A stretch of DNA of 64,000 nucleotides from a virus (IMGVR_UViG_3300046733_000629), one strand, 5' to 3'; counted from the first letter of the stretch, positions 3 to 60,433 are shown. Notes: a model not told the origin generated them from the sequence alone. Made by a program: numbers and translations.

Positions 3-203
3 AAAGAGCCTACTAGCATTTACGTTGATAGTGATGGACACAATAGAAGTATTCAAAAGTTTATTGAAGATAATATTGATCTAACACCAAAAGCGATCAT
101 TGACAGATTTGATTTATTCAAGTATACTAAGTATAGTGAAAATTGTATTTACGGACACTTTGGTAATAAAGATGTTCCGTGGGAACAGATTGGATGGAAA
201 TAG
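3..203 (+). CDS. metK: S-adenosylmethionine synthetase, 3' end (partial at window edge)
   Basis: Frame-3 translation KEPTSIYVDSDG...IDLTPKAIIDRFDL...IYGHFGNKDVPWEQIGWK* matches the MetK C-terminal EPxSIxV...DLxPxxII...YGHFG...PWE pattern. Not in the ORF track. Confidence 0.9.
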   Translation, partial: KEPTSIYVDSDGHNRSIQKFIEDNIDLTPKAIIDRFDLFKYTKYSENCIYGHFGNKDVPWEQIGWK

Positions 204-211
204 GAGGAAAT

Positions 212-481
212 ATGATGGGTTGGTGGAACAAACTAGTACAACGTAAAAAAGCCGAAGAAGTAAGTGCTAAAGATAAAGCTACTGCTAAAGGCGAACCTTA
301 TGTAAAAGTACTAGAAGTTAAGTTTGATAAAGACAAACCAGGTGATGGTTACTTTGAATTAGAATGGAATCAAATATTTGTAAAACAATTACTTGAAGCA
401 GGCTATTCAGGTGCCGATGAAAATGAAATAGTTGATGCATGGTTTACCGGACTTTGCAGAACAATTGCAGACGAACAGTAA
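212..481 (+). CDS. Conserved-looking hypothetical phage protein
   Basis: ORF 179..481; GGAGG at 203-207 favours ATG 212/215. Confidence 0.75.
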   Translation: MMGWWNKLVQRKKAEEVSAKDKATAKGEPYVKVLEVKFDKDKPGDGYFELEWNQIFVKQLLEAGYSGADENEIVDAWFTGLCRTIADEQ

Positions 482-484
482 TAC

Positions 485-513
485 TTGACATTCCATTCGT
501 GGTGTGTTACAAT
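485..513 (+). promoter_or_regulatory. sigma70-type (early) promoter
   Basis: TTGACA 485-490, 17 nt, TACAAT 508-513. Confidence 0.75.
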
Positions 514-539
514 ATAAACTTAATAATTACAGGATCTTT

Positions 540-1541
540 ATGATGAGTTATATACTAGTAGACGCGGCTAATATGTTTTTCCGTGCTAGGCATGTAGTAC
601 AACGTGGTGCAGATATGTACACAAAAATTGGTATGAGTTATCATATCATGTTTAACAGTATTAATAAAGTATGGCGAGAGCAAAATGGTACACATGTTGT
701 ACTATGCTTGGAAGGCCGTAGTTGGCGTAAAGACGCATATGAACCTTACAAACGTAATAGGTCTGTTGCACGTGAAGCACTTAATGATAAAGATGCAGAA
801 GAAGATCGTGCATTTTGGGAAGCCTTTGATGAGCTTAAAACATTCTTTGAGAAACGTACAAATGTAACTGTATTACAACATGGCGAATGTGAAGCAGATG
901 ACTTTATTGCACGTTGGATACAGAATCATCCCGATGACAAGCATTGCATTGTAAGCAGTGATAGTGACTTTTATCAGTTACTTGCTCCTAATGTTAATCA
1001 GTACAATGGTATTACAGGACAACTTATTACAACTGAAGGCATCTTTAATGATAAGGGTAAACCTGTTATTGATAAGAAAACTAAAGAGCCTAAAGAAATA
1101 GGTGACCCACAGTGGTTGTTGTTTGAGAAGTGTATACGAGGCGACACTAGTGACAATGTGTTTAGTGCATGTCCAGGTGCTCGTAAGAAAGGCACTAAGA
1201 ACAAAGTAGGTATGTTAGAAGCATTTGCAGATAAAGATACTAAAGGTTATAATTGGAATAACTTTATGCTACAACGTTGGGTAGATCATGAGAACGTTGA
1301 ACATCGTGTGTTAGAAGATTACGAACGTAATAGACAAATTATTGATCTCACTATGCAACCCGATCATATTAAAACAAAGCTAGATGAAGCTATTGTAGAA
1401 CAAGTACAAAAAGAACAGAAGTCACAAGTAGGTATACACTTTATGAAGTTCTGTGGTAAATGGGATATGCAAAAGATTGTAGACAAAGCACAAGATCATT
1501 CTAATTATCTCAATAGGAGTTATGCAAGTGCCAAGGCCTAG
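540..1541 (+). CDS. T4-like RNase H / 5'-3' (flap) exonuclease
   Basis: ILVDAAN, EADDFIA, SSDSDFYQL, GDTSDNV motifs of the FEN/RNase H-T4 family; start moved to ATG 540 downstream of the promoter. Confidence 0.88.
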   Translation: MMSYILVDAANMFFRARHVVQRGADMYTKIGMSYHIMFNSINKVWREQNGTHVVLCLEGRSWRKDAYEPYKRNRSVAREALNDKDAEEDRAFWEAFDELKTFFEKRTNVTVLQHGECEADDFIARWIQNHPDDKHCIVSSDSDFYQLLAPNVNQYNGITGQLITTEGIFNDKGKPVIDKKTKEPKEIGDPQWLLFEKCIRGDTSDNVFSACPGARKKGTKNKVGMLEAFADKDTKGYNWNNFMLQRWVDHENVEHRVLEDYERNRQIIDLTMQPDHIKTKLDEAIVEQVQKEQKSQVGIHFMKFCGKWDMQKIVDKAQDHSNYLNRSYASAKA

Positions 1542-16552: not shown

Positions 16553-17977
16553 ATGGCAGATAATAAACTACCAAGCGATACTTTTTGTATCCTACCTTGG
16601 ATTCACCTTTCAACAAGACCAGACGGCAGTATGCGTGTATGTTGTACGGCTAACGCATCAAGTGTTGGAGCAACCAACGACAAAGAACATGGCGGCAGAG
16701 TTGGTATTGTTAGAACAGAAGATGGAAGACCAGCAAACTTAAATAACAGCGATCTAAATAGTTCGTGGAATAATAGCTATATGAGAAGTGTCAGACAAAT
16801 GATGCTTAAAGGCGATAAGCCTGCTAGTTGTTTAAAATGTTATAAAGAAGAAGATGCAGGACACAGATCAAAAAGACAATGGGAAACAGATTACTGGATT
16901 AAAGACGGTATTGATGTAGAACAATTAGTAAAGGAAACTTACGAAGATGGAAGTACTGATAGTAAATTACGGTATATTGATATCCGTATGGGGACGAAAT
17001 GTCAGTTGGGGTGCGTTATGTGTTCTCCACATGATAGTTCCGGCTGGGTAAAAGATTGGAATAAATTATATCCACAAATTACAAACGAGTCATTAAAAGA
17101 AACTATGACTTGGGAAAACAAAGGTAAAGAATTTGGTGCTAGTTATAATTGGCACAAAGACAATCCTGTATTTTGGGAACAATTTTATGCACAGATTCCA
17201 TATATTAGACAATTATATTTTGCTGGTGGTGAATCAACTGTTATTGAAGAACATTACGATATCTTAGATAAAGTTATTGAAATGGGATATGCACATCAAA
17301 TCGAAGTGCGTTATAATAGTAATGGTATTGAAATTCCAGATAGACTATTAGAGCAGTGGAAACATTTTCAAAAAGTAAGATTCCATTATAGTGTAGATAG
17401 CATTGAAGGTATGAATGATTATATTAGATACCCAAGTGAATGGGAACATAATCTAAAACAGTTTGAACTACTAGATACTAGAACAAGTAATAATGTAGAA
17501 ATTACTATTGCTTGTGCAGTTAATGCATTAAACATTCATTATATTCCAGACTTCCTTAAATGGAAACTACAACATGGATTTAAGAAAACAAACATGTGGC
17601 CTTTTGGTGCAGGTGGTATTAACTATCATTTTGTATATTGGCCAGGACACTTAAATGTTAAAGTGCTACCAGATGAATTCCTAGATAAGACTGAAGCTAA
17701 GTACGAAGAATTTATTGAATGGTGGAAAGAAAATTGGGAACTAGGTGTTCCTAGTTGGCACAAAGGCAAAGTATCATACGAGAAATGGCTAGATGCTAGT
17801 TACGGAATTAAACGACTCAGAGGCATGATTAGTTTTGCCCGTAGTGAAGATTGGAGCAGAAGACTTCCTGAATTCAGAGAATACATTAATAAATTAGATG
17901 AATTAAGAGGCACAGACTTCCGTGCTACCTTCCCTGAAATGGCATATCTTCTCGATGAGCCAGATGAAAAGCTATAG
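16553..17977 (+). CDS. Radical SAM protein with N-terminal twitch-type domain
   Basis: FCILPW..MRVCC..CLKC at N-terminus; CQLGCVMC; FAGGE. ATAAATA at 16528-16534 upstream. Confidence 0.92.
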   Translation: MADNKLPSDTFCILPWIHLSTRPDGSMRVCCTANASSVGATNDKEHGGRVGIVRTEDGRPANLNNSDLNSSWNNSYMRSVRQMMLKGDKPASCLKCYKEEDAGHRSKRQWETDYWIKDGIDVEQLVKETYEDGSTDSKLRYIDIRMGTKCQLGCVMCSPHDSSGWVKDWNKLYPQITNESLKETMTWENKGKEFGASYNWHKDNPVFWEQFYAQIPYIRQLYFAGGESTVIEEHYDILDKVIEMGYAHQIEVRYNSNGIEIPDRLLEQWKHFQKVRFHYSVDSIEGMNDYIRYPSEWEHNLKQFELLDTRTSNNVEITIACAVNALNIHYIPDFLKWKLQHGFKKTNMWPFGAGGINYHFVYWPGHLNVKVLPDEFLDKTEAKYEEFIEWWKENWELGVPSWHKGKVSYEKWLDASYGIKRLRGMISFARSEDWSRRLPEFREYINKLDELRGTDFRATFPEMAYLLDEPDEKL

Positions 17978-18180: not shown

Positions 18181-19431
18181 ATGGAACTTAGACCCAAAAC
18201 TGTTAGAGAAAAAATAGAAGAACTTCCAACAAAAAGTTATTGTGCATATGCATGGTCAGGTGCAGCAATAGGACCAACCGGTGATGTATTTCCATGTTGT
18301 AGATGGCAAGGACCTCACACTCAAGGTGACCCTAACGTTCCAAACATTAAAGATGGGTTAGTAGCAGCCAGAGAAGGAAAATATTTTTCTAGAATAAGAG
18401 AGCAAATGATCAATGGAGAATATCCTTCTGGTTGTGCTAAATGCTGGAGAATAGAAAAGAAAAGATTAGAAGAAGAAGATGCAGGAATTCCTAGCCCACA
18501 GGATAGTGTACCTAGAGTACAAATTGGTCACAGAATAAAAGTAACATCAACTAAACCTCAAACTGAAAAGATTAGATACTTAGAAACAGGTGTTAGTAAC
18601 TTGTGTAATATGGCATGTGTAATGTGTGGACCATTAGCAAGTAGTACAATATTTTCAATAAAAAATCCAGGTGTAAAAGTTCCCAAAGGCTTTCACCAAG
18701 ATAATACTAACATTGATGATGACTTATCAGAATTACGTTATTTAAAATTTGTAGGTGGTGAGCCTATGTTAGAAAAGAAACATGATGACTTACTAGAAAT
18801 GGTTATTAACCAAAACGCTGATCCTTCTCAACTAGAAATGGAATACCATACTAATGCAAGTGTATTTCCTAGTGAACGTGTTATAGCATGTTGGAAGAAA
18901 ATAAAACTAGTAAGAATTATTTTTAGTTTAGATGGAGTAGGTGACAAAGTTAAACTTCAAAGGCCAGGAAAATATGTTTGGCAAGATTTAGAAGATACTG
19001 TAGATAAGTATGTAGCTATAACTAATGAAGTCAATATAGAATTTTCATCCAATACAGTATTAACTTCATTGAATATAGGACAAGGAATTGATACAGTAAA
19101 ATGGCTTTATAAAAAAGTAGGTAAATGTACGTTAGGTTGGTTTAATGTTAACCCAGAAGTTATGCCAAAGGTATCATCAAAGTATTTAAATCATAGAAAC
19201 CTAAGTAAAGAAACTAAAGAAAGAATTAAAAAAGAAATAGCTGATTTTAAACAATCAGAACACCCGGCATTAAAGACACCAATTGCTAAAATTTTAGATA
19301 TTATTCTACATCACATAGATGAGCATGGTGACTTAGACGAAGACTTGACCAGAGAATTGATTTTAGAAAAACATACTAATAAAGATAGATGGAAACACTT
19401 TGGTGAAGAATTAAAAAATTTAGATATATAG
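18181..19431 (+). CDS. Radical SAM protein with N-terminal twitch-type domain
   Basis: YCAYAW..VFPCC..CAKC; CNMACVMC; FVGGEP. Confidence 0.92.
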   Translation: MELRPKTVREKIEELPTKSYCAYAWSGAAIGPTGDVFPCCRWQGPHTQGDPNVPNIKDGLVAAREGKYFSRIREQMINGEYPSGCAKCWRIEKKRLEEEDAGIPSPQDSVPRVQIGHRIKVTSTKPQTEKIRYLETGVSNLCNMACVMCGPLASSTIFSIKNPGVKVPKGFHQDNTNIDDDLSELRYLKFVGGEPMLEKKHDDLLEMVINQNADPSQLEMEYHTNASVFPSERVIACWKKIKLVRIIFSLDGVGDKVKLQRPGKYVWQDLEDTVDKYVAITNEVNIEFSSNTVLTSLNIGQGIDTVKWLYKKVGKCTLGWFNVNPEVMPKVSSKYLNHRNLSKETKERIKKEIADFKQSEHPALKTPIAKILDIILHHIDEHGDLDEDLTRELILEKHTNKDRWKHFGEELKNLDI

Positions 19432-19439: not shown

Positions 19440-19976
19440 ATGAAATACATTTTAGTTGCTCTCAAAGAAGAGCTACCAGACCATGATTTACCTTCATCAG
19501 AATTCCAAGTATGGTATACTGGTGTTGGAAAAGTAAACGCATCTATATTTGCTACGTTAGCATGTATACAAAAAGACTGTGAAGCTGTTATTAATTACGG
19601 AACAGCAGGTACATTAAAACCTGAACTAGCCGGACAGTTACTACAAATAGGTACAGTTAGACAACGTGATATGGATGCAAGACCACAAGCAGAATTAGGT
19701 GTTACACCTTTTGATAATTCAGGATTTGATGGTGATATAGAACTTAGTAACAGTGCATACATATTAAGCACAGGTGATAACTTTGTAACGTCAGCACCAG
19801 AACTTGAAAGTGATTGTGTTGATATGGAAGCATATGCAATTGCCAAAGTATGTAAACACTTTCAAAAGCCATTTATATGTTATAAATATATTAGTGATTT
19901 AGCTGATGAGAATGCAGCAAAGACTTGGGTCGAAAATCAATCTAAAGGAGCTGATGCTTTTATAGCAATGACATAA
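19440..19976 (+). CDS. mtnN: 5'-methylthioadenosine/S-adenosylhomocysteine nucleosidase (PNP_UDP_1 family)
   Basis: TGVGKVNA, INYGTAG, STGDNFV, VDMEAYAIA, KYISDLAD motifs. Confidence 0.85.
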   Translation: MKYILVALKEELPDHDLPSSEFQVWYTGVGKVNASIFATLACIQKDCEAVINYGTAGTLKPELAGQLLQIGTVRQRDMDARPQAELGVTPFDNSGFDGDIELSNSAYILSTGDNFVTSAPELESDCVDMEAYAIAKVCKHFQKPFICYKYISDLADENAAKTWVENQSKGADAFIAMT

Positions 19977-40306: not shown

Positions 40307-40972
40307 ATGGATAAATGGAGTGATATAATTTCTGCGAGAAGTACAACCTTTAGTTGGACTGATGAATTAATACCAAAAGAAGTAATACAAGAAGTATGTG
40401 AGGAAGTACATTTATTTTGCCCTAGTAAAAATAGAAAGATACCTTACATTGTAAACGTAATTAGAAATACAGATTACGATCAGCGTAAAGCCCTACACAC
40501 AGGCTGTCATAGAAATACTGATCGTACTATAGAAGAAGACGGTGGTAACCCACAAGTGCTTGCTCCAACATTATTGGTGTTTAGTAAGCGTGACGTAACT
40601 GAAGCTGAAACAAAGTTTCAAACTATAGAAAAAAGAGTTGAAGATGGCATTGCTAATACAGATAACATTGAAATTGGTATGGCAGCATTATCATTCTTAT
40701 ACGGCTTAACATCAAGAGGATGGGATACAGGTTTGTGTCAGTGTGTTAGAAGTCGTAGTGGAACAGCAAGATTACTTGGAACCAACGGCTCTACTGATTT
40801 AATTATTGGTGTAGGTAAACGTAACACAGTAGATTCAGAAACAGGTGAAACAACAACTTGGCCTAAGTATATGGATCCACGTAACGATAAGCATCGTAAA
40901 ATTCCATACCCATATGGAATTAGTCCTTATCCTAAACCAAACTTTGACGATATATATAAAATAGAATTTTAA
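40307..40972 (+). CDS. Nitroreductase-family flavoprotein
   Basis: IISARSTTFSW..E.IPKE, CPSKN, GWDTGLCQC, IIGVG; ATAAATA 40276-40282 and GGAG RBS. Confidence 0.7.
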   Translation: MDKWSDIISARSTTFSWTDELIPKEVIQEVCEEVHLFCPSKNRKIPYIVNVIRNTDYDQRKALHTGCHRNTDRTIEEDGGNPQVLAPTLLVFSKRDVTEAETKFQTIEKRVEDGIANTDNIEIGMAALSFLYGLTSRGWDTGLCQCVRSRSGTARLLGTNGSTDLIIGVGKRNTVDSETGETTTWPKYMDPRNDKHRKIPYPYGISPYPKPNFDDIYKIEF

Positions 40973-40985
40973 GTAAGTGAGATAA

Positions 40986-41549
40986 ATGAAAATAATCGCA
41001 ACCGGTAATCCAGAATTTGGTGTTGCAAAAGCAATTGCTGAACGGTTTCCTGAAACAACCTTTGTCAATAGAACTGACTGGGGATATGATTTATGTCAAG
41101 ATTCATATAAAAAGAAACTAGCAGAAAAGGCTCTTAATTATGACGTCTTTATTAACTGTTCCGCACTATGGCAGTATCATCAAACTATGCTACTAGATGT
41201 AGTCTACAAAAATGCTTTAAAGAACCTTAAACGACTACATATCGTGTCTTTGGGTAGTACAACTGACAGAGCCACCAAAGGTAGCGACTGGCATTATCAA
41301 CAAGAAAAGAAGGCATTGCGTAGTACAAGCAATGCATTGGGCTTAAAAAGCATATGGGCTGGTGGACCAAAAGTAAGTTATGTTACATTTGGAACACTGG
41401 AAAATAATGCACATAAGCATCCAGGAAGAACAGTAATGAAACTAAACGAAGCCGTAGATATGATAGAATATGTAATTAATATGCCTTATCATTTAAACGT
41501 TAACGAACTAAGCATTGACCCAATGCAAACGGATTGGCCAAATGAATAA
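40986..41549 (+). CDS. Short-chain dehydrogenase/reductase-like protein
   Basis: IIATGNPEFGVAKA, DVFINCS, YQQEK (YxxxK), KVSYVTFG. Confidence 0.7.
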   Translation: MKIIATGNPEFGVAKAIAERFPETTFVNRTDWGYDLCQDSYKKKLAEKALNYDVFINCSALWQYHQTMLLDVVYKNALKNLKRLHIVSLGSTTDRATKGSDWHYQQEKKALRSTSNALGLKSIWAGGPKVSYVTFGTLENNAHKHPGRTVMKLNEAVDMIEYVINMPYHLNVNELSIDPMQTDWPNE

Positions 41550-42717
41550 ATTTTGCTACATGCCTTGGCATGCAATCACGTTGAGTGCAAATGGTGATAT
41601 TAAGCCATGCTGTCAATTTAGTAATAAAGGTCGTTTACCTAATACACAACATGAAACTATTATGGAAAACTTTAATAGTGAACGTATGCAAGAACTACGT
41701 AAAGACTTTCTAAAAGGTGTACAACCTAGTGCTTGCAATAGTTGTTGGGAGAGAGAAGATTTAGTAGGACAAAGTAGACGCCTGTGGTTTAATAAAAAGT
41801 TTATGAAGTTTGATGCTGATTTTATAAATGGCAATACACCTGATACATATGATGTACCAAATCCAAAGTTCTATCAAGCAGATATTAACTTATCAAATGT
41901 GTGTAATTTAAAATGCCGTATGTGTGGAAGTTGGGCAAGTAACAGTTGGTTCGAAGAAGAAATAGCGTTAGCTAAAATAGACAAGCGTTATGAAAAGAAT
42001 GAAAGAGCAGTTCCATTACAACAATATGGATTAGAAGACTTACGCAATATGCTACCTCATTTAAAAGATGTAAAGCGTATAGACTTTAAAGGCGGAGAGC
42101 CTATGATGGCTAAACATCATAATCAATTCTTACAATGGTTGATTGATGAAGATATGACTAACATTGAATTATTTTACACAACAAACGGAACAGTACAAAA
42201 TCCTAAAATACTGAACTTGTTAAAACAGTTTAAACGTGTTAGTATATGTTTTAGTATAGAAGGTACTGGAGAACTATATAGATATATTAGAGGTGGCAAA
42301 TACGAACTAGAAGATTTTGAATTCACACTATCAGAATATGATAAGTTACCAAATGTACAAATTATGTTTAATGTAACATTACAAAATTATAATGTATTTA
42401 ACTTACCAGACTTGCATTTTTTCTTGCATGAAATGGAAGATAAATACGAGAGAGTAAGTGCTAACAGTAGTTTCACTACTATCTGTAACAAACCAGCATA
42501 TTTAAGTCCAATGAACTTGCCAGATGATTTACGAGATAAAGCAATTAAAAACTTATCCTTGTTTGAAGATTTTGACAAGTTAGTTGAGAGTATGAAAGCT
42601 AGAACATTTAATCCTGAACTATGGGATACATTTATTAACTTTACAAACGACTTAGATAAAATGCGAGGAGATAGTGTAGTTAAAGCTGTACCTCAACTAA
42701 AGGAATATTTTAAATGA
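41542..42717 (+). CDS. Radical SAM protein with N-terminal twitch-type domain
   Basis: FCYMPW..IKPCC..CNSC; CNLKCRMC; FKGGEP. Confidence 0.92.
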   Translation: MNKFCYMPWHAITLSANGDIKPCCQFSNKGRLPNTQHETIMENFNSERMQELRKDFLKGVQPSACNSCWEREDLVGQSRRLWFNKKFMKFDADFINGNTPDTYDVPNPKFYQADINLSNVCNLKCRMCGSWASNSWFEEEIALAKIDKRYEKNERAVPLQQYGLEDLRNMLPHLKDVKRIDFKGGEPMMAKHHNQFLQWLIDEDMTNIELFYTTNGTVQNPKILNLLKQFKRVSICFSIEGTGELYRYIRGGKYELEDFEFTLSEYDKLPNVQIMFNVTLQNYNVFNLPDLHFFLHEMEDKYERVSANSSFTTICNKPAYLSPMNLPDDLRDKAIKNLSLFEDFDKLVESMKARTFNPELWDTFINFTNDLDKMRGDSVVKAVPQLKEYFK

Positions 42718-43436
42718 GAAAACTTGTAGGTATTGAAGATAATCATGCACCTAAGGATGAGTTACTACGAGTAGAATGGAATTTAGGAAAACGTTGTAAT
42801 TACAATTGTAGTTACTGTGGTAACGAACTACATAATAAAACAAGCGAGCATATGCCTTGGGAAGTTTATACTAATACAATAGATAAAATTGTAGAAGCAG
42901 CAATGGGCAAAAAGATTAAAATTAGTTTTACAGGCGGTGAGCCATTTGTACATCCAAAGTTTATTGATATGTTAAAGTATGCTAAAGAAAATGGTGTATA
43001 TAGATGTAGTGTTACAACAAACGGAAGTCCACCACCTAAGATATATAAGAAAGCATTGCCATATTTACATTATGTTGTAATCAGTTATCATTTTGAATTT
43101 GCATATCATGAGAAAGTTATTAATAACATTACAGGTATGTGGAAAGAGATACAAGAATATAGAGCTAAAGATGATTACAAAGGCATGCATGTTCATATTA
43201 TGGCTTTACCAGGACACTTGCCACAATGGAAAGAAATCATAGACGAATTAAAAGAATGTGGAGTTGAGTATACTATAAGAAAAATTAGACCACGTGTTAA
43301 CATGGATCGTACAGGTTGGAATAAACCATATGCTGACGGTATGTTAGGGCAACATCCTAAACACGAAGAAACAGAAAAGTTTGCAGGACAATATTATAGT
43401 AATGAAGAAGAGGAGTGGTTAAAAGTAAATGCCTGA
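42714..43436 (+). CDS. Radical SAM core domain (N-half of a split rSAM-SPASM)
   Basis: WNLGKRCNYNCSYC; SFTGGEP; paralog of the N-terminal part of 48391..49566. Confidence 0.9.
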   Translation: MRKLVGIEDNHAPKDELLRVEWNLGKRCNYNCSYCGNELHNKTSEHMPWEVYTNTIDKIVEAAMGKKIKISFTGGEPFVHPKFIDMLKYAKENGVYRCSVTTNGSPPPKIYKKALPYLHYVVISYHFEFAYHEKVINNITGMWKEIQEYRAKDDYKGMHVHIMALPGHLPQWKEIIDELKECGVEYTIRKIRPRVNMDRTGWNKPYADGMLGQHPKHEETEKFAGQYYSNEEEEWLKVNA

Positions 43437-44736
43437 TACTAATTATCATAGAGACATATACACCAGAAAACGAAAAGTTAAAGAATGGATGGCTGAACCT
43501 GGAAATAATTTTTGTGCATTGCCGTTTATTCATATGGCAATTGAAGCAGATGGGCAGGTAAGACCTTGTTGTATGGGAGATCCTTTTGACAATATTAATG
43601 TTTCAGGCGGTACAATAGAGAGTGCATATAATCACCCTGAAAGACAAGAATTTGTACAAGCATTTAAAGACAACAAACAACATCCAAAGTGTAATGTATG
43701 TTGGAATGCATCATATAGTATACGTAGTAGATATTCATCAAATGACATGTCTATAAAATTTACTGAATCAGTAATGGAAGGCAATACCCCAGAAGCATCA
43801 TTAAAATGGTTAGAAATTAAACCCGGAAACAGATGTAATTTAAAATGTAGAATATGTGGGATACACAATAGCAGTACATGGACAAAAGATCATCATATTC
43901 TAAAAGAACACAAGAGCGTAAAATTTAAAGATTCATTTGCATTTAAATATACACAAAAATGTAATTGGGTCGATGATCCTAACTTCTGGAATGATATAAA
44001 TCAGTTAGATGAAATACAAGATTTACACTTTATGGGTGGTGAACCTTTTATGGTATTAGAGCATTTTCAGTTACTTGAGAAATTAGTAGCTAGTCGAGAT
44101 TGTAGTGATATCACTATTAGATATAATACAAATGGTACTTATTATCCAACAGCAGAACAATGGAAATTGTATGAGAATTTTAGACAAGTAAAATTTCAAG
44201 TAAGTATTGATGATGTTGGTCCAAGATTTGAGTACGCTCGTAAAGAAGCAAAGTGGGATCTAGTAAAAGAAAATCTAAGAAAGTTTAGAGAAGCAAAACT
44301 ATTATGCGAAGTTAAAGCAAAAAATGATCCCATCAATTATCCAGTAACAAAAGTTAGAGCAAATTTAGACCCAACAGTAAGTATGTTTAATATATTTTAC
44401 TTAGATGTTATTGAAGAAGAATTTAATAACATGGGTTGGCCTTTGGGAAGTCATGCAGATCATTATGTCTATAATGGACCAAATAATATAAGAAACTTGC
44501 CAGATGAATATAAACATATAATAACTGAAAAATATAAAGACACTAAAAGTACTTGGATACCAATGGCAGTAGATTATATGTGGACAGCCAAAAGTGATTA
44601 TGAACAGTGGATGATGTTTGTAAAACAGACTAAAGAAACAGACACAGTAAGAAATGAAAGTTTTAGTGATGTATATCCTGAATTTTATAATCTTATAAAA
44701 AGTGAATATGATAGGTATGAACCAATAGATGAATAA
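43429..44736 (+). CDS. Radical SAM protein with N-terminal twitch-type domain
   Basis: FCALPF..VRPCC..CNVC; CNLKCRIC; FMGGEP. Confidence 0.92.
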   Translation: MPDTNYHRDIYTRKRKVKEWMAEPGNNFCALPFIHMAIEADGQVRPCCMGDPFDNINVSGGTIESAYNHPERQEFVQAFKDNKQHPKCNVCWNASYSIRSRYSSNDMSIKFTESVMEGNTPEASLKWLEIKPGNRCNLKCRICGIHNSSTWTKDHHILKEHKSVKFKDSFAFKYTQKCNWVDDPNFWNDINQLDEIQDLHFMGGEPFMVLEHFQLLEKLVASRDCSDITIRYNTNGTYYPTAEQWKLYENFRQVKFQVSIDDVGPRFEYARKEAKWDLVKENLRKFREAKLLCEVKAKNDPINYPVTKVRANLDPTVSMFNIFYLDVIEEEFNNMGWPLGSHADHYVYNGPNNIRNLPDEYKHIITEKYKDTKSTWIPMAVDYMWTAKSDYEQWMMFVKQTKETDTVRNESFSDVYPEFYNLIKSEYDRYEPIDE

Positions 44737-45094
44737 TTTTAAAAATATAATAACACATTACAGTGATGGTACAAGTGAAGAAGATAATGTAAATAATGTA
44801 ATGGCACGAGATGAAAATGATTTCCGTGGTTGGGAATGTTGGGCTGGTGTACAAAATATTACAATAAGCAATACAGGTGATGTGTATAGAGCAATATGCA
44901 AAGTAGGAGGCAAACTAGGAAACATATATGATGGATTTGAAATGCCACTTGAAACAATTATTTGTAACAAGCCTAGATGTATATGTGCCGCTGATGTACA
45001 ACTATCAAAAGCACAACCAGAGCATGTTACAAAATTAAGAGTAGGAAAAGATTGGATGGACGATGTTTATAGTTCGGGTATAAAAGATGAGTAA
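44729..45094 (+). CDS. Stand-alone SPASM-type domain (C-half of the split rSAM)
   Basis: FRGWECWAG..GDVYRAIC..LGNI..CNKPRCICAAD matches the C-terminus of 48391..49566. Confidence 0.82.
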   Translation: MNNFKNIITHYSDGTSEEDNVNNVMARDENDFRGWECWAGVQNITISNTGDVYRAICKVGGKLGNIYDGFEMPLETIICNKPRCICAADVQLSKAQPEHVTKLRVGKDWMDDVYSSGIKDE

Positions 45095-46394
45095 ACAAAG
45101 CAATTATGAAAAGTTCTACGAGAACGCTATAGGAAAAATTGGCAAACTGCCAGTGGATAAAGAATCATTTTGTCCATTGCCATTTGTACATGTAAGCACT
45201 ATGCCGCATGGAGAAGTTAAACTATGTTGTAGAGCACAACCACCAAAGAATGGAAAAAATCCAAATGTTAAAGATGAAGATTTTAATCTAAAAGATTATT
45301 GGCACAGTGAGTATATGAATGAGATACGAGATTCCTTAATCACAGGTGAGAAACATCATCAGTGTAAAAATTGTTGGAAGATGGAAGATAATAACATTGT
45401 TAGTTTACGTATGAATAGATTAACAGATTTAATGGAAACTCCATCAACCAGAAATGCAGTTGAAAAATATTTAGTAGATAGAGAAGTAGATTTTAAAATT
45501 CCACTGATAGAACTTAAACTAAGCAACGTATGTAATTTTAAATGTCGTATGTGTTGGCCAAAAGACAGTTCAAAGTGGATGCAAGATTGGGATAAAGTAA
45601 AACAATTCTATAATAAAAATGACAGAGAATATGTAGATGAAATTGTAGACAGTAATGATTTACGTAAATCTAGAGTAATGAACTTGTATGAAAAAGATGA
45701 ACATTTTGTTCCACAATTATTAGAAGTAATGGAAACTGTAGAAGAGATTGAATTTGCAGGCGGTGAGCCACTTATGGATCCTATTCATTATCGTGTATTA
45801 GACAGTATTCCACATCCAGAAAACGTTACATTAAAATACAGTACAAACCTAAGTATTATGAAAATGGGTAAACATAGTGTTATTGACTTATGGAAAAAAT
45901 TTAAAAGCATTAAACTAACAATCAGTATTGATGGACACAAAGAGCTTAATGCTAAAATAAGAAGAGGGTCTGATTGGGAACTATTAAAAAGTAACATTAA
46001 CTTAGTTAAGAAAGAATTAACTAATATTGATGTTATCAAAGGAACTACATGTATTAGCGGAATGAATGCAAAAGAACTAGGCGAAACAGCTGAAGCTATT
46101 GTATTCGAATTAGGTATACACTGGCATACAAGCCGTGTACAATGGCCTGATTTCTTACATGCTAACGTATTACGCCCAACGGAGCTTCAAGGTGGAATAG
46201 ACGGCTTAAAACGGGTATTTGATAGCTTAAACCTACCAGAAAGACGTATGGTAGGTAGACGCTTTATGTTTGAAACACATTTAAATGGTGCTATGCATTG
46301 GCTACAATCTTGTATTGACAATAACAAGCACGAAGAAAAATACGAAGCATTTTGTAAGTTTAATCAGACAATTACGGACATTGATGATGACTAA
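45087..46394 (+). CDS. Radical SAM protein with N-terminal twitch-type domain
   Basis: FCPLPF..VKLCC..CKNC; CNFKCRMC; FAGGEP. Confidence 0.92.
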   Translation: MSKQSNYEKFYENAIGKIGKLPVDKESFCPLPFVHVSTMPHGEVKLCCRAQPPKNGKNPNVKDEDFNLKDYWHSEYMNEIRDSLITGEKHHQCKNCWKMEDNNIVSLRMNRLTDLMETPSTRNAVEKYLVDREVDFKIPLIELKLSNVCNFKCRMCWPKDSSKWMQDWDKVKQFYNKNDREYVDEIVDSNDLRKSRVMNLYEKDEHFVPQLLEVMETVEEIEFAGGEPLMDPIHYRVLDSIPHPENVTLKYSTNLSIMKMGKHSVIDLWKKFKSIKLTISIDGHKELNAKIRRGSDWELLKSNINLVKKELTNIDVIKGTTCISGMNAKELGETAEAIVFELGIHWHTSRVQWPDFLHANVLRPTELQGGIDGLKRVFDSLNLPERRMVGRRFMFETHLNGAMHWLQSCIDNNKHEEKYEAFCKFNQTITDIDDD

Positions 46395-47433
46395 GAAGTT
46401 AGCAATATTTGGTAATAGCTTTGGAACGCAACTCGCAGACCCTGCAAAAAGAGTATGGGAGTTAATGCCAAGCAAAGAGAGAAAAATAGAATTTAGAAAA
46501 GCATGGTATAATGAAATGCCTAGCTGGATTAGAATGCTTAAAAATGAATATGATGTAGTGCATACATTTGCTGTTGGCAATACAGGTATAGATTATAGTT
46601 ACTTACAATTTTTAAGATATCACAATGAGTATGATACTGTAATATTCATAACAACACGAGCATGGACTCATTCACATATACAATATGGTAATCAAGTAGA
46701 GGAATGGCGAGGCGAAGCTTCTATACATGATATTGATTTTATAAGACCCGAATGGATGTTAGATGAAAGACCAATTAATTGTTACAAAAAGTTCGCTGAA
46801 AAAATACTTAAATCAAATAATAAACCAACTGGTCCTGAAATGCCTATATATGATGAAGATGCAATAAACTTAATGAAAGTATATGTTGACTACGGTACAC
46901 ATGTTGTTCCCAAATTTCCATTTAGAGATCTGTTACAATGGGCATCAATGATTGATAATATAATTAGAACTAGACCAGATGTTAAAATGATAAACACTAG
47001 TCCAGAAGAGTTTAATGATCTTGGAATTAAAATACCAATTGGAAAAATACAAACTTTACATAGAATGGAAAATGATATTTTACTAGGCAAACATGCAGAG
47101 TATGAATTTAGAAAAGCTCAGGGTTTACCGTTAGATGAAGATGGGAAACTTGTTGCTGGATTAGATGATGCATTGCAACAGATGCCTGTTTTAAAATTGT
47201 ACAGTGATGCTAGAGTAGGACACTTATCAACAGAAGCACATAGGTTAATATATGCTGAAGTAAAAGATTTATTAGCATCCAACAATACTTGGTTAGATTT
47301 TGATTTAGATGCTATGGTTAAAAAACTTATGGAAATGAATTTAGATAAAAAGAGATATTTTGTTGCAGAACACAAAGACATTAAATCATGGGCTAAATAT
47401 AATAACTTATGGATTGATGAGGAAGTAAAATGA
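46387..47433 (+). CDS. SGNH/GDSL-like hydrolase or acyltransferase
   Basis: Block I IFGNSF; AVGNTG; C-terminal DARVGHLSTEAH (DxxxxH variant). Confidence 0.6.
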   Translation: MTKKLAIFGNSFGTQLADPAKRVWELMPSKERKIEFRKAWYNEMPSWIRMLKNEYDVVHTFAVGNTGIDYSYLQFLRYHNEYDTVIFITTRAWTHSHIQYGNQVEEWRGEASIHDIDFIRPEWMLDERPINCYKKFAEKILKSNNKPTGPEMPIYDEDAINLMKVYVDYGTHVVPKFPFRDLLQWASMIDNIIRTRPDVKMINTSPEEFNDLGIKIPIGKIQTLHRMENDILLGKHAEYEFRKAQGLPLDEDGKLVAGLDDALQQMPVLKLYSDARVGHLSTEAHRLIYAEVKDLLASNNTWLDFDLDAMVKKLMEMNLDKKRYFVAEHKDIKSWAKYNNLWIDEEVK

Positions 47434-48401
47434 GTATAGGAATTTTTGGCGATAGTTTTGCAAGGTGTAAAGTTCCATTAATGCATCCTTTAGACCCAAG
47501 TAATATTAAAACAGTAATACATACAAATGATGAATATATTAACTTCCAACAAAAAGTAGAAGCACTGATGCCAACTTGGGCTAAGTTATTACCAGATACT
47601 ACAAATTTTGCAGCAGGCGGTACAGATTTATCTTGGAGTTTTTTAAAGTTTTTAGAACACCATGAAAAGTATGATAACATTATTTTTGTAGTTACATCGC
47701 CAAAAAGAATAACACTAAATGCTCCTCATATGTATGTGCCAAGTGACAGAGGAAGTAAATTTGGAGTAAATTTGATAACATCAGTAAGTGCTAATCAATC
47801 ACTTCTTAAAAAAGAAAAGTTTTGTAATTCTGTAAATGAAGAACATCTATATGTACGTGATGCTTACGATGCAATTAACAAATGGCAGACTCATATTCAA
47901 CCAGAGTTTCCTGAAAGAGATTTCTTACATTACGGAATATTAATTAATGAGTTGCAACGTATAAGACCAGATATTAAATTAATAAAAGCATTTTGTCACC
48001 CTACAGCAGATGATGAATGGAAGATGAAAGATTTTGGCAAAAAAAATTACTATCCATACAAGCATTTTGATAATATTCCACTTGACAATAAAGCTGAATA
48101 CCTGCATAATATAGTAAAAGTTGAAGATTCTAATTATTTTGAAGAACAAATAGCACAACCTAATAAATGGCATGATTGCAGATCAGGACATATAAGTATT
48201 ACTTCGCATGTAATATTATATAAAATAATAACAAAGTGGTTAAAAACTAATGATACATGGCTTAACTTTGATATAGAAGAATTTAAAAATAATAAAGTAG
48301 ATGCAAATGATAGCTTTATGGATAAAAGTAAATCGTTACCAGAATGGCAAGATGCATTCCTACAAAGACGTATTAATGATGGAAAAATAAATGGAAGATA
48401 A
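47430..48401 (+). CDS. SGNH/GDSL-like hydrolase or acyltransferase
   Basis: IFGDSF; AAGGTDL; DCRSGHISITSH; paralog of the previous gene. Confidence 0.65.
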   Translation: MSIGIFGDSFARCKVPLMHPLDPSNIKTVIHTNDEYINFQQKVEALMPTWAKLLPDTTNFAAGGTDLSWSFLKFLEHHEKYDNIIFVVTSPKRITLNAPHMYVPSDRGSKFGVNLITSVSANQSLLKKEKFCNSVNEEHLYVRDAYDAINKWQTHIQPEFPERDFLHYGILINELQRIRPDIKLIKAFCHPTADDEWKMKDFGKKNYYPYKHFDNIPLDNKAEYLHNIVKVEDSNYFEEQIAQPNKWHDCRSGHISITSHVILYKIITKWLKTNDTWLNFDIEEFKNNKVDANDSFMDKSKSLPEWQDAFLQRRINDGKINGR

Positions 48402-49566
48402 AGATTTAAAATGGAGTGAATATGATTTCACTAAAACACCGTACGATAAACTAGTACGTGTTGGACAACGAAATATGTTGTATAGAGACATGTTTACTGT
48501 TAGCTGGTTAATAGGAAGATTTTGTAATTACAATTGTAGTTATTGTTGGCCTTATGCTAGAAGTAGTAGAAAAGATCATAGACCAACTGAACTTAATTTA
48601 AAAACAATTGATGAGATTAAGCGTCAAGCACGTGAAAGAGGATTCAATAGTTTTCACTTTAGTTTAAGTGGGGGTGAGCCTACATTCCATCCTGGCTATT
48701 TAGATATGTTAAAACATTTAAGTGATGATGCACATAATACAAATTATACAAGTGTGCATATGACTTCAAACTGTAGTCGTAATATGAAATGGTTTCAAAC
48801 ATATTGTGATTATGCTAGTAAGTTTCACAGAGCAAGTATAACAGCAAGTTTACATGTTGAACACGTAAACACACCTGAAAAAATGCAAGACCTTGCAGAC
48901 AAATTAATACTATGTCAAGAGCATGATGTACAAGTAACAATTAATATGGTTATGGTACCTGCATTATTTGATGAATATTATGACAACGCATTATTCTTCC
49001 ATAATCAAGGAATCAATGTTACACTAAAACCTCAATCAGATCCAACAGCAAGTAGAATTGTTGATGGTTATACAGATGAAATGAAAAGAAAATTACACAA
49101 TGGTATGCCACAACGTAGTTACACTGAAGCTAAAGCACAACAAAAGCAATTAGTAACTAGACCTAAGCCTACATTTAAAATTGACCCTGATGATCATTTC
49201 CGTAAACAGACAGCATCAGTTCCGTGGAACATGCAGGTGGAATTTAGAGATGATAAAGGTGATCCGTGGTATATGGATCAAGCTGAAAGATTTAATGCAT
49301 TTAATTTTAATCAATTTGAAGGTTGGGAATGTAGTAGTGGATATCGTAGTATAATTATACGTGAACCAGATGGATCAGTTAAAAGGTCTTACTCATGTCA
49401 TGATCAACCTTTAGGTAATATTGAAACTGGATTTAAATTGTTTGATGGTCCAAAAGTATGTACTACAAAATCTTGTGTATCAAGTGCTGATAGTAAAATA
49501 CCAAAACGAGCACCAGGAACAGCTATGCCCCTTTGGCCCGGTGATGATACTTTCTTTGAAGATTAA
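48391..49566 (+). CDS. Radical SAM protein with C-terminal SPASM-type domain
   Basis: CNYNCSYC; SLSGGEP; FEGWECSSG..KRSYSC..LGNI..CTTKSCVSSAD. Confidence 0.92.
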   Translation: MEDKDLKWSEYDFTKTPYDKLVRVGQRNMLYRDMFTVSWLIGRFCNYNCSYCWPYARSSRKDHRPTELNLKTIDEIKRQARERGFNSFHFSLSGGEPTFHPGYLDMLKHLSDDAHNTNYTSVHMTSNCSRNMKWFQTYCDYASKFHRASITASLHVEHVNTPEKMQDLADKLILCQEHDVQVTINMVMVPALFDEYYDNALFFHNQGINVTLKPQSDPTASRIVDGYTDEMKRKLHNGMPQRSYTEAKAQQKQLVTRPKPTFKIDPDDHFRKQTASVPWNMQVEFRDDKGDPWYMDQAERFNAFNFNQFEGWECSSGYRSIIIREPDGSVKRSYSCHDQPLGNIETGFKLFDGPKVCTTKSCVSSADSKIPKRAPGTAMPLWPGDDTFFED

Positions 49567-54759: not shown

Positions 54760-54972
54760 TTACCACCATCCTAATGTTCTGCCATTTCCTGCAATAATTA
54801 GACAACATGTTAATACATGCAATACTATCCAGAACGTTCTGAAAGCTAGTGCCTTCACTACATCTGATTGTGTAATTGGCAAAAATTCAGGCTTATCATC
54901 ATCATTGAGACCAATTGGCATTCCAACTGTTCTCGCCCAAACTTTTAAAAATCTTCTTTGTCCACTCATCAA
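54760..54972 (-). CDS. Small membrane-associated hypothetical protein
   Basis: 70 aa, ATGA-coupled to prs; C-terminal hydrophobic helix. Confidence 0.6.
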
Positions 54973-55916
54973 ATTTTATGTGTAAACAAACTGCTTACAC
55001 TTTCTTCATTACTGACACGTCTAATAGCTTCACCAAACATAGTTGATACACTTACTACTCGTGTCTTTTTACAATCATCTGGACAAGAAAATTTAATGCT
55101 ATCTGTAATAACAAGTTCTTCCAATACACTATTCTCAACTTTATGACATGCTTCGCCAGTTAGTACTCCATGTGTAATATATGCTCGTACACTTAATGCA
55201 CCAGCGTCCATGATTGCTTTTGCGGCGTTACATAGTGTTCCACCACTGTCAATAATATCGTCAACTAGAATTGCATGACAACCTTTAACATCACCAATAA
55301 GTCCCATTACTTCACTTTCGCCTGCTTTGGGTCTACGTTTGTCCACAATAGCAATATCGCCTCCAAACATATCAGCAAATTTTCTAGCACGTACTGTACC
55401 ACCTGCGTCTGGTGAAACAAATACTGTACCTTTTTCTATTTCTACATTATACTTAATATCTTTTGCAAACGCAATACGACTTGTTAAGTCATCAACAGGA
55501 ATATCAAAAAAGCCTTGTATCTGTCCTGCATGTAAATCCATTGTAAGGATTCTATCTGCACCTGCTTGTGTAATAAGATTTGCAACTAGTTTTGCAGTAA
55601 TTGGTGTACGGCTAGCACTCTTACGATCTTGTCGTGCATAACCAAAGTATGGAATAACTGCCGTAATACGACTGGCACTGCTACGCTTAGCCGCATCAAT
55701 CATAATCATTAATTCCATTAAATTGTCGTTCACAGGTGTGCTTGTGCTTTGTATAATAAAAACATCTTCGCCACGTATATTTTCTAAAAATTCTACACTA
55801 CATTCGCCATCAGCAAAAGTTTTAATTTCAGCAGGTACAATTGTAGCAAAACAATGAGAAGCAATTTTCTCTGCCATTTCAGTATTACTATTTCCTGCAA
55901 TAATCTTCATCTTCAT
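54969..55916 (-). CDS. prs: Ribose-phosphate pyrophosphokinase (PRPP synthetase)
   Basis: [46 protein letters not shown]. Confidence 0.97.
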
Positions 55917-58321: not shown

Positions 58322-58350
58322 ATTATATTACTTTTTCTTGTAAAAGTCAA
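58322..58350 (-). promoter_or_regulatory. sigma70-type promoter
   Basis: Minus strand TTGACT (58350-58345), 17 nt, TATAAT (58327-58322). Confidence 0.7.
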
Positions 58351-58636
58351 GCATTTCATCTATTGATTCCGTCGGAGGTGGTAAGTCTAAATCACCTATT
58401 TCTAATGATGTTCCATCTTCCTCCATTTTACCATCTTTTGATTTTAGTAATGCTGTCTGTGATAACTGCATTTTATGATCTCTAATCAAATCAATAAACA
58501 AATTAATCTGATCAAGTATTCCACCACTCATTTGAGCTTTACTAGCCGCTAGTACTTTTTTAAGCATTTGTTTTTCAAACTCAATAGTTTCTTCTAACGT
58601 AAGCTGTTCTAATGGTTTACCTTGATAGTCAATCAT
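58328..58636 (-). CDS. Hypothetical protein
   Basis: 102 aa ORF. Confidence 0.65.
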   Translation of the reverse strand: MIDYQGKPLEQLTLEETIEFEKQMLKKVLAASKAQMSGGILDQINLFIDLIRDHKMQLSQTALLKSKDGKMEEDGTSLEIGDLDLPPPTESIDEMLDFYKKK

Positions 58637-59082
58637 CTCAACATATCCACACGTTCTTGATGTCTACCACCTTCAAATTTAGTGGTAAAAAATTTAGTAA
58701 TAATTTTTTTAGCTTTAGGCAAACTAGTGAAGTCTGCACCTAAACAAAGTATATTTGCATCGTTGTGTAGTCTAGACATTTCAGCTTCTTTTTCTGTTCT
58801 ACATACAACAGCTCTACAACGTGGTACTCGGTTGGCTGCGATTGATACACCATAACCTGATCCACAAATTATTATTCCAGTATTCATCAATTTACTAGAA
58901 ATATCTCTGGCTACAATTGATGCTATTTTTGGATAGTCAACTTTTTTATTTTCATATGGACCGCTATCAGCAAATACTGATATATCAAATCTTGGGTCCT
59001 TGTCAATTGGTGTTAACCATTTAGATATTTCATTTTTTAATTCATATCCTCTATGGTCTGATCCAATTACTAGATCGATCAT
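58633..59082 (-). CDS. rpiB: Ribose-5-phosphate isomerase B
   Basis: IGSDHRG, DYP, ICGSGYGVSIAANRV, HNDANILCLG, FEGGRHQERV. Confidence 0.93.
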   Translation of the reverse strand: MIDLVIGSDHRGYELKNEISKWLTPIDKDPRFDISVFADSGPYENKKVDYPKIASIVARDISSKLMNTGIIICGSGYGVSIAANRVPRCRAVVCRTEKEAEMSRLHNDANILCLGADFTSLPKAKKIITKFFTTKFEGGRHQERVDMLR

Positions 59083-59501
59083 ATATCACCGTCTTTTCTA
59101 TTCTCACTATAATGAGCATCAAATGATCCACCTGGGTAACGTTTTTCAAGTTTTTTAACATTTTCTGCAATAACTTCATTAGGGTCAATTCCTAATGCAC
59201 TACAACTGTTCATCCAATACCACATAATATCGCCAAGCTCTCGCATAGCGTGATACTGTGTGTCTTCATCCATAGGCTTACCTTGGAATACACACTTCTT
59301 TACAATTTCCATAAACTCGCCACCTTCAGCACTGATGCCAATAGCACCTGTCATAAGTTGTGCCATGTTTACTTTCATTTTGCTTTCAGTTGTTTCAATC
59401 TCAACAATACGATTATACATCTGCATACTTGAGAGTGATTCATTGCTTGTTACTTCTCGTACAAAATCTTTGTACTTGTTTAGATCAATCTGCTTGGTCA
59501 T
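59079..59501 (-). CDS. MazG-like nucleotide pyrophosphohydrolase
   Basis: EGGEFMEIVKK, ELGDIMWY, NVKKLEKRYP. Confidence 0.88.
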   Translation of the reverse strand: MTKQIDLNKYKDFVREVTSNESLSSMQMYNRIVEIETTESKMKVNMAQLMTGAIGISAEGGEFMEIVKKCVFQGKPMDEDTQYHAMRELGDIMWYWMNSCSALGIDPNEVIAENVKKLEKRYPGGSFDAHYSENRKDGDI

Positions 59502-59510
59502 TTTACTTCC

Positions 59511-59909
59511 TTAATTTTTTGTTGCGTCAGTTACTTCTGGTAATTTAAATGCGTTTGCATTTTCTTCTACTTTTTCCATGTCAAAGTTAATGCTTTCTCC
59601 ACAACCACAACTACTTGCCGCTGATGGATTAACAATTTCTAACATAGTACCCATAAGGTCTTGTTTAAGTTCAAGTGTTGTGCCTACTAAAAACATAATA
59701 CTTGAGCTGTCAACTGCCATCTTTTTTCCGTTATCCATAATTATAACATGATCTGCTTTCGTGTCAAGTTCTGATTCTTCTTTTAGTTTCCATTCGTAAC
59801 TAAAACCTGCACACCCACCTCCACGTAAACCTAATACTGGAATCTTATTATCATTTGATTCACTTATACCTGTTAAGTGATTCATAGCTTTTTCTGTAAT
59901 TTTAATCAT
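59511..59909 (-). CDS. A-type Fe-S carrier (IscA/SufA/ErpA, HesB family)
   Basis: GGGCAGFSY and NPSAASSCGCGES. Confidence 0.92.
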   Translation of the reverse strand: MIKITEKAMNHLTGISESNDNKIPVLGLRGGGCAGFSYEWKLKEESELDTKADHVIIMDNGKKMAVDSSSIMFLVGTTLELKQDLMGTMLEIVNPSAASSCGCGESINFDMEKVEENANAFKLPEVTDATKN

Positions 59910-60433
59910 TCTTTTGCTCCGTACAATTGGACCACGGGTAAATTATCGAGGCCCTTGTTGAGATATTCCAAGTTAACAAGTGTTACTGCCCCAATAACTT
60001 GGGCACCTGTTTGCTCAACCAATCTCTTAGTAGCTAACATGCTACCTCCGGTTGCTATTAGGTCATCTGCAATTAATACTCTGCTAGTATGACCAAGTAT
60101 ACCTTCTTGTAATGTTAGTGTATCACTTCCATATTCAAGTTCGTATGTTTCTTCTAATAGTACTCCTGGGTATTTAGCACCTTTTTTACGAACCATTGTA
60201 AAAGGTAATAACATTTCTTGAGCAAGTGCTGAACCTATTACAAATCCTCTACTCTCAATACCCACAATATGAGTAATGTACGACCCATCAAAATCTTCTT
60301 CGCATTGTGTTGCTAGAGATCTTACACAATCTCCCCATACGTTACTACTAAACAAACTATTTAAGTCGTAAAAGTTTATACCTTCGACAGGATAATCTGG
60401 TACTGTTCTTATAAAATTTTTAATCTGTTTCAT
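59906..60433 (-). CDS. apt: Adenine phosphoribosyltransferase
   Basis: IRTVPDYP..GINFYD, GIESRGF, VRKKG, LEYGSD, IADDLIATGGS. Confidence 0.93.
   Translation of the reverse strand: MKQIKNFIRTVPDYPVEGINFYDLNSLFSSNVWGDCVRSLATQCEEDFDGSYITHIVGIESRGFVIGSALAQEMLLPFTMVRKKGAKYPGVLLEETYELEYGSDTLTLQEGILGHTSRVLIADDLIATGGSMLATKRLVEQTGAQVIGAVTLVNLEYLNKGLDNLPVVQLYGAKE

Follow-up and report, generated by a model that had tools for sequence, protein, structure and literature searches.

Several phage auxiliary gene sets back a pathway that the phage itself encodes, such as folE, queD and queE with DpdA for 7-deazaguanine DNA, and prs with the salvage genes for nicotinamide adenine dinucleotide (NAD) in large myoviruses. 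Enzymes that use S-adenosylmethionine (SAM) for radical chemistry, the radical SAM (rSAM) enzymes, are inhibited by 5'-deoxyadenosine (PMC8102628). The nucleosidase Pfs/MtnN hydrolyses S-adenosylhomocysteine (SAH), 5'-methylthioadenosine (MTA) as well as 5'-deoxyadenosine, which prevents inhibitory build-up and serves adenine salvage (PMC10986504, with reference to Choi-Rhee and Cronan 2005 and to Challand et al. 2009). We analyzed 64,000 nucleotides (nt) of DNA from the virus IMGVR_UViG_3300046733_000629 (called the window, to which all coordinates refer), where a gene for a nucleosidase of the MTA/SAH/5'-deoxyadenosine type (MTAN) is found among a large number of rSAM genes. An earlier note on this DNA had proposed that metK, MTAN, apt, prs and rpiB form one coherent closed loop of SAM supply and 5'-deoxyadenosine recycling. 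All five genes are present by Pfam and NCBIfam models, metK as its end (Table 1), and the chemistry invoked, namely inhibition by 5'-deoxyadenosine, its clearance by a nucleosidase and the release of adenine, is sound (PMC10986504, PMC8102628). The reading that we favor, with modest confidence, is that MTAN, MetK (with SufE in relatives), Apt, iron-sulfur (Fe-S) carriers and ferredoxin constitute an rSAM support kit which sustains the radical chemistry of the phage, and not a closed loop.

A short nucleosidase among radical SAM genes

The MTAN gene starts 8 nt past the stop codon of one rSAM gene (rSAM2), and a single base separates its own stop codon from the start of the next (rSAM3), in agreement with the claim that it is embedded between two rSAM genes. 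The best NCBIfam match of the protein was NF004168 ('nucleosidase'), with 92.5 bits against a cut-off of 129, and the scores for NF004079 (72 against 169) and TIGR01704 (55 against 73.8) were also below cut-off. The nearest solved relatives by sequence are bacterial MTANs. In an alignment with the Escherichia coli MTAN chain 1jys, M129-E130 and S152-D153 correspond to the ME and SD motifs (E. coli Met173-Glu174 and Ser196-Asp197). The KEE sequence at residues 9-11 was matched by eye to the N-terminal MEEE that holds Glu12, the alignment itself starting at query residue 17. Sixteen phage homologues all share residues E11, M129, E130 and D153. An AlphaFold model generated from the alignment of these 16 homologues had a pLDDT of 87.5, and the top 50 Foldseek matches to this model in the PDB were all MTAN-family nucleosidases (TMq 0.68-0.82, mostly 0.77-0.82). 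Sequence and model together indicate a divergent short form in which the PNP_UDP_1/MTAN fold and the catalytic residues appear to be retained. Relatives of this short MTAN are found in 489 IMG/VR viral contigs.

Megablast of 20 kb of the window against GenBank phages gave no DNA match. Protein-guided searches of IMG/VR, on the other hand, retrieved a large family of marine contigs that share the gene order of the window; the longer related fragments represent 20-40% of a genome (CheckV), and two complete relatives with terminal repeats measure 338 and 328 kb. The exact DNA of the window is present in many seawater metagenomes. The window is part of an uncultured marine jumbo phage, and the complete genomes of its clade are about 330-340 kb long. 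No paper on radical SAM in marine jumbo phages came up in a literature search.

We tallied the neighborhoods of 67 distinct phage MTAN sequences and placed these sequences on a tree. An rSAM gene lay within 300 nt of 26 MTAN genes and within 10 kb of 6 more; 9 were beside the ferredoxin gene fdxA, and 26 had neither arrangement. Adjacency to rSAM changed at least 5-7 times on the tree, i.e. it is seen in at least 5 separate lineages, and adjacency to FdxA changed at least 4 times, corresponding to at least 4 lineages. The slot rSAM1-MTAN-rSAM3 is retained in at least 20 IMG/VR loci. rSAM1, which is 82-91% identical across relatives, is the gene directly upstream of MTAN in most of them, and in the window rSAM2 intervenes. 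Other arrangements include a run of 7-8 unrelated rSAM genes with MTAN as the last gene (L112 and L126), MTAN ahead of a small rSAM gene (L009 and L101), and MTAN between a clamp-loader gene and fdxA. MTAN is the only one of the helper genes with repeated, differently arranged links to rSAM genes.

In seven loci (L096, L098, L099 and L102-L105) rSAM1 is 86-88% identical to that of the window, whereas the identity of the MTANs that occupy this slot falls to 45-47%, and they belong to a separate, well-supported clade. This disparity suggests that the MTAN gene of these loci was replaced in place.

We also observed MTAN genes 13-146 nt from fdxA, mostly without an rSAM gene inside 10 kb, in L016-L019, L022, L097, L106, L107, L111, L114 and L118; the MTAN genes that adjoin fdxA frequently come after a clamp-loader gene. 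At one further locus (L014), a queuosine-precursor transporter gene of the Vut_1/YhhQ type (L014:9173-9793) lies upstream of MTAN, and an FkbM methyltransferase gene lies 2 kb downstream.

metK and the Fe-S/ferredoxin genes

The metK fragment at the left edge of the window is 72-84% identical to the full-length metK that occupies the same place in most relatives, and 49% identical in G004. In syntenic relatives the full-length protein has 366-399 amino acids (aa) and scores about 415-430 bits, above the cut-off of 309. In every one of the 11 contigs with this rSAM cluster, full-length metK is the first gene of the same block. The synteny of metK with the rSAM cluster is strong, yet represents a single lineage. 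In the closest long relative (G002), a SufE-family gene (L035:1129-1524; PF02657, E = 5e-24) overlaps the start of metK, and a SufE gene is likely to lie just beyond the left edge of the window. SufE homologues were observed beside metK in G003, G004 and G011 as well.

At the other end of the window, the apt product passes one NCBIfam cut-off (Table 1) and scores 151 bits with TIGR01090, under the cut-off of 185.85. The stop codon of apt overlaps the start codon of iscA (ATGA), and the gene order SufT-FdxA-NifU-Apt-IscA is kept in 11 related loci. The Fe-S carriers and the ferredoxin that surround apt and rpiB were missing from the list of genes in the earlier note; FdxA is a candidate electron donor for the rSAM enzymes. 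The run of Fe-S and electron-supply genes, at 59511-63739 on the - strand, also includes a Cys-rich protein of 326 aa without a family match, after SufT. We surveyed 43 apt loci, and found apt between NifU/FdxA and IscA in 11, 2.5-3 kb upstream of metK in 5, within the block downstream of metK in 5, and a few kb downstream of the clamp loader in 6. The apt gene thus shifts between the Fe-S/ferredoxin module and the neighborhood of metK. Between 48.5 and 64 kb, promoter-like sites showed no excess (76, against 70 expected in shuffled sequence), and terminator-like sites were somewhat enriched (15, against 6.2 expected).

Marine metatranscriptome libraries from several studies contain contigs that match the window. 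An identical contig of 2.2 kb runs from the end of rSAM1 through rSAM2 and over most of MTAN, further identical contigs cover mazG-iscA, rpiB and fdxA-sufT, and a contig over iscA-apt has a single mismatch; prs is barely covered. Such contigs report presence only, and neither strand nor level, and are compatible with transcription of the helper and rSAM genes.

prs, rpiB and the question of a closed loop

The prs product was identified with TIGR01251 (372 bits against 113) as well as with the model listed in Table 1, and contains both domains, PF13793 and PF14572. RpiB is barely above the cut-off of TIGR01120 (138.9 against 138.65), and the rpiB start codon is overlapped by the stop codon of mazG (ATGA). 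Outside the window, rpiB was found only in L069 and G002, and as a 51%-identical copy near apt in L143. The prs gene occurs in the clade of the window and in two other clades, and is absent from the complete genomes G035 and G037 and from G036. A second phosphoribosyltransferase, which also needs phosphoribosyl pyrophosphate (PRPP), was present on all five large related contigs searched, and in G005 and G007 prs lies 3-5 kb from metK, between metK and this second phosphoribosyltransferase gene. NAD salvage was considered as a client of prs and rejected, since no gene of the NAPRTase/NadV family was found on five large related contigs. We conclude that prs and rpiB are generic genes for PRPP supply that were added late and in particular lineages, and that they are not dedicated to a SAM loop.

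We then looked at whether the five genes travel with rSAM expansions, a check that the earlier note had proposed. Local rSAM genes were counted with a hidden Markov model of the rSAM core made mostly from the rSAM genes of the window, with which distant rSAM types may have been missed. This model was built because an initial profile search, whose zeros on small contigs are unreliable, had overlooked an rSAM gene for 227 aa adjoining MTAN in G009 (L009:10537-11220; 38 bits with hmmscan). G037 (complete, 14 rSAM genes) carries an rSAM run, MTAN, metK and SufT inside about 15 kb, where 849 bp separate MTAN from an rSAM gene and about 3 kb separate it from metK, and has apt elsewhere. G035 (complete, 8 rSAM genes) has only metK and MTAN of the helper genes, and G036 (estimated 91% complete, 9 rSAM genes) has MTAN within an rSAM run, and apt, without metK. 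All three lack prs and rpiB despite their 8-14 rSAM genes, and G014 and G041 lack rpiB, so that the five genes do not travel together with the expansions. The full set of metK, MTAN, apt, prs and rpiB was found only in the window, in G002 and in the L069 fragment; co-occurrence of the five is confined to a shallow sub-lineage, the nearest relatives of the window. The trend across whole genomes fits a pattern of more helpers with more rSAM genes, in a small sample and with no phylogenetic correction.

The loop is also not closed chemically. Five relatives, of which two are complete, yielded no adenylate kinase above cut-off and neither MtnA nor LuxS; they stood in for the genome of the window itself, which could not be searched beyond 64 kb. 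Because no adenylate kinase was found, conversion of adenosine monophosphate (AMP) to adenosine triphosphate would be left to the host. The 5-deoxyribose that remains cannot become ribose-5-phosphate and is not recycled by phage genes, so its fate depends on the host. Instead of completing a cycle, RpiB and Prs channel fresh ribose-5-phosphate to PRPP. The notion of one coherent closed loop is therefore not supported. The broader proposal, that these genes are a set sustaining rSAM enzymes, is supported in part: it gains support for MTAN from the recurrent link to rSAM genes, for metK from synteny and for apt from its recurrent place beside Fe-S/ferredoxin genes or close to metK, and it is not supported for prs and rpiB.

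We propose that host-like helper genes would keep rSAM chemistry going in the infected cell as follows. MetK would regenerate SAM, and the short MTAN would hydrolyse 5'-deoxyadenosine, and probably SAH and MTA, which would relieve product inhibition and free adenine. Apt would convert the freed adenine to AMP. The adjoining convergent block would provide Fe-S carriers (IscA, NifU and SufT), with FdxA as a candidate reductant. Prs and RpiB may increase the general supply of PRPP, also for other phosphoribosyltransferases and for nucleotide synthesis.

Alternative explanations

A number of observations weigh against a support kit. MTAN scores under each of the NCBIfam equivalog cut-offs and has about 50 residues fewer than canonical MtnN, and that it accepts 5'-deoxyadenosine is a prediction from family membership. 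About 40% of the distinct phage MTANs have no rSAM gene inside 10 kb, and apt was within 10 kb of MTAN at none of 89 MTAN-centred loci. In a position test on seven genomes, the nearness of MTAN to rSAM genes was only marginal (Fisher p about 0.06) because the rSAM genes are so dense, and indicates weakly that the placement is beyond chance. In the same test metK, apt, prs and rpiB were no closer to rSAM genes than random (p > 0.4), and there was no signal for fdxA or the Fe-S genes. Much of the synteny reflects common ancestry inside one clade and is not independent evidence, and the contigs from RNA libraries may be carried-over DNA. GenBank lists 266 phage records with prs and 132 with metK, the latter mostly small Streptococcus prophages. 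Finally, in G039, a complete genome with one rSAM gene, MTAN stands alone at a distance of 52 kb from the rSAM gene.

These observations raise the question of whether there is a dedicated system at all. The genes could be independent, common auxiliary genes that serve the supply of nucleotides and the use of SAM in general (DNA replication, methylation), gathered in accessory islands of a very large phage, with their nearness to rSAM genes reflecting the history of the lineage. Besides the GenBank counts, the lack of positional enrichment for metK, apt, prs and rpiB and the restricted occurrence of the complete set of five, this explanation is favored by the phage C48C1 (156 kb), where apt overlaps MTAN downstream of nrdAB in the only apt-MTAN pair seen, in a genome with one rSAM gene and without metK. 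Gene content points the same way: thyX sits in the metK block, and apt, mazG, rpiB and prs share one block with clpP, a co-chaperonin-like gene and a gp44-like clamp loader, because of which we regard the - strand block as a mixed accessory block and not as a pure support operon. Occurrence independent of rSAM expansions, named in the earlier note as evidence that would count against it, was thus found in part, for metK in small prophages (which were not scanned for rSAM genes) and for apt-MTAN and MTAN alone in phages with one rSAM gene. What makes a mere collection of common genes unlikely, in our view, is that MTAN is found repeatedly within differently arranged rSAM runs, with a divergent MTAN in the same slot, and is paired with ferredoxin in at least 4 lineages. 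Moreover, apt is wedged among Fe-S carrier genes with overlapping stop and start codons, sufE overlaps metK, and G039, with its one rSAM gene, has no metK, apt, prs or fdxA.

It is improbable that MTAN and MetK chiefly serve SAM-dependent methyltransferases, with the nucleosidase removing SAH and the rSAM neighborhood being secondary. Canonical Pfs does act on SAH (PMC10986504), a class-I methyltransferase-like gene below Pfam cut-offs is present at 5719-6462 and has paralogues scattered in relatives, apt lies among methyltransferase-like paralogues in L158 and L160, and the FkbM methyltransferase gene of L014 is close to MTAN. However, a single weak methyltransferase match stands against 15 rSAM genes in the window, relatives yielded neither LuxS nor another gene for SAH recycling, and the recurrent neighbors of MTAN are rSAM and ferredoxin genes, not methyltransferases. 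We give still less credence to the idea that the nucleosidase is a pathway step, in which an rSAM enzyme attaches a 5'-deoxyadenosyl group to a substrate, in the manner of MqnE and HpnH, and adenine is next taken off by the nucleosidase, in the manner of aminofutalosine nucleosidase, MqnB and HpnG. Both adenosylating rSAM routes known to us have a PNP_UDP_1 nucleosidase as the next step. The packing of MTAN between two rSAM genes in a biosynthetic-looking cluster would suit such a step, as would weak matches of MTAN to the HpnG (E = 6e-13) and futalosine hydrolase (E = 2e-10) models, and the Helicobacter pylori MTAN that doubles as an aminofutalosine nucleosidase is among the fold matches. On the other hand, the neighboring rSAM proteins are of the N-terminal-twitch (N-twitch) type and gave no match to MqnE or HpnH models, and closely similar MTANs adjoin ferredoxin, thymidine kinase or apt genes without rSAM genes nearby, which fits a general housekeeping role better.

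If a support kit is the correct reading, a further possibility can be put forward tentatively, as one that we would not yet count on. Marine jumbo phages may share a modular, mobile kit (SufE-MetK, short MTAN, FdxA, Fe-S carriers and Apt), whose parts are shuffled between the rSAM cluster and the neighboring block and selected along with N-twitch expansions, with MTAN repeatedly recruited or replaced in its slot. Should this hold, clearance of 5'-deoxyadenosine and the supply of SAM, electrons and Fe-S clusters would be rate-limiting for phage radical chemistry in streamlined marine hosts.

Layout of the window and other features

The window has a G+C content of 34%. Genes are on the + strand at 1-49,566 and on the - strand at 49,567-64,000, and the two blocks converge at about 49.57 kb. 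A Pfam search and a motif scan of the window revealed 15 open reading frames (ORFs) with a Radical_SAM domain, all in the + strand block. The plain CxxxCxxC motif is present in 14 of them, and the Radical_SAM match of the ORF at 25996-26676 is under the Pfam cut-off. Six of the ten rSAM proteins tested passed NF033640, the N-twitch rSAM family (200-413 bits against a cut-off of 170), whose function is, to our knowledge, uncharacterized. In the rSAM proteins encoded at 16553-49566, Pfam places a SPASM/twitch domain ahead of the rSAM core, an unusual order. The rSAM genes at 25996..49566 presumably encode SAM consumers, and are accompanied by aminotransferase-like and Asp/Asn-hydroxylase-like genes, a weak nitroreductase-like match and unknowns. 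Within this part, separate, overlapping ORFs carry an rSAM core (25996-26676) and a SPASM domain (26663-27016), a split also observed in L004 and L008; this is probably either a real two-gene arrangement or a conserved frameshift.

Among other genes of the + strand block, a MoxR-like AAA ATPase and a DUF2201 metallopeptidase/VWA protein (10911-13621) form a conserved pair upstream of the rSAM cluster, 80-92% identical in relatives. The region 5054-10550 holds thyX, the class-I methyltransferase-like gene with its many paralogues in relatives, a DegP-like trypsin/PDZ protease gene and two alginate-lyase-like genes. A small gene for a proton-channel-like protein of the MotA/ExbB family (51676-52119; E = 4e-7) in the - strand block is conserved in relatives.

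Table 1. Annotated genes of the window in order of position, with the family models that identify them.
Feature	Coordinates	Strand	Evidence
metK, C-terminal 66 codons (gene cut by window edge)	3..203	+	PF02773, E = 1e-11; TIGR01034 positions 303-367
rSAM1, N-twitch rSAM	16553..17977	+	NF033640, 413 bits (cut-off 170)
rSAM2, N-twitch rSAM	18181..19431	+	NF033640, 208 bits; PF04055 and SPASM
MTAN, 178 aa, PNP_UDP_1	19440..19976	+	PF01048, E = 3e-17
rSAM3, N-twitch rSAM	19978..21231	+	NF033640, 302 bits
Remaining rSAM cluster, 12 more rSAM genes	25996..49566	+	Pfam, motif scan, NCBIfam
prs, ribose-phosphate diphosphokinase (PRPP synthase)	54969..55916	-	NF002320, 458 bits (cut-off 297); PF13793, E = 1e-53
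rpiB	58633..59082	-	PF02502, E = 8e-47; TIGR00689, 150 bits (cut-off 88.3)
MazG-like nucleotide pyrophosphohydrolase, between iscA and rpiB	59079..59501	-	PF03819, E = 2e-7
IscA/ErpA-type Fe-S carrier	59511..59909	-	TIGR00049, 71 bits (cut-off 58.8)
apt, adenine phosphoribosyltransferase	59906..60433	-	NF002636, 161 bits (cut-off 125); PRPP-binding loop VLIADDLIATGGS
NifU/NfuA-type Fe-S carrier domain	60892..61236	-	PF01106, E = 1e-21
FTR1-like iron permease piece	61556-62191	-	
FdxA-type ferredoxin	62121..62465	-	NF045490, 160.7 bits (cut-off 135)
SufT/DUF59-type Fe-S assembly protein	62466..62810	-	PF01883, E = 6e-17; TIGR02945, E = 9e-33 (below cut-off)

Implications and comparison with known systems

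If the helper genes do sustain the rSAM enzymes, the virus brings with it the upkeep of a demanding enzyme family, in the form of cofactor synthesis, by-product removal and the supply of Fe-S clusters and electrons, and not the enzymes alone, and the helpers would show at which steps radical SAM chemistry is limited in marine hosts. When the uncharacterized N-twitch rSAM enzymes are to be reconstituted and the product of the cluster identified, co-expression with the short phage MTAN, FdxA and the Fe-S carriers is an obvious choice. prs and rpiB should not be taken as dedicated parts of a SAM loop.

The phage MTAN shares its predicted fold and the catalytic Glu, Met-Glu and Ser-Asp motifs with E. 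coli Pfs/MtnN (EC 3.2.2.9), which supports BioB, LipA and other SAM enzymes, and the role proposed for it, by-product removal with release of adenine, is the published role of Pfs (PMC10986504). The E. coli enzyme has about 232 aa, in contrast to the 178 aa of the phage form, which is without the N-terminal hairpin and an internal segment. In bacterial adenine salvage, Pfs and Apt, with PRPP from Prs, lead to AMP and MetK regenerates SAM, and the same steps are represented in the phage set. Unlike bacterial salvage with the dihydroxyacetone phosphate shunt, however, neither the MtnK/MtnA/aldolase branch nor an adenylate kinase was found in the phage relatives, and the phage genes are divided over two convergent blocks rather than held in one operon. 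As in the phage sets of folE, queD and queE with DpdA and of prs with NAD salvage genes, supply genes stand beside the enzymes that use them, prs being a frequent member; here, the function supported would be the supply of SAM, Fe-S clusters and electrons, and the removal of by-products, for a large rSAM expansion.

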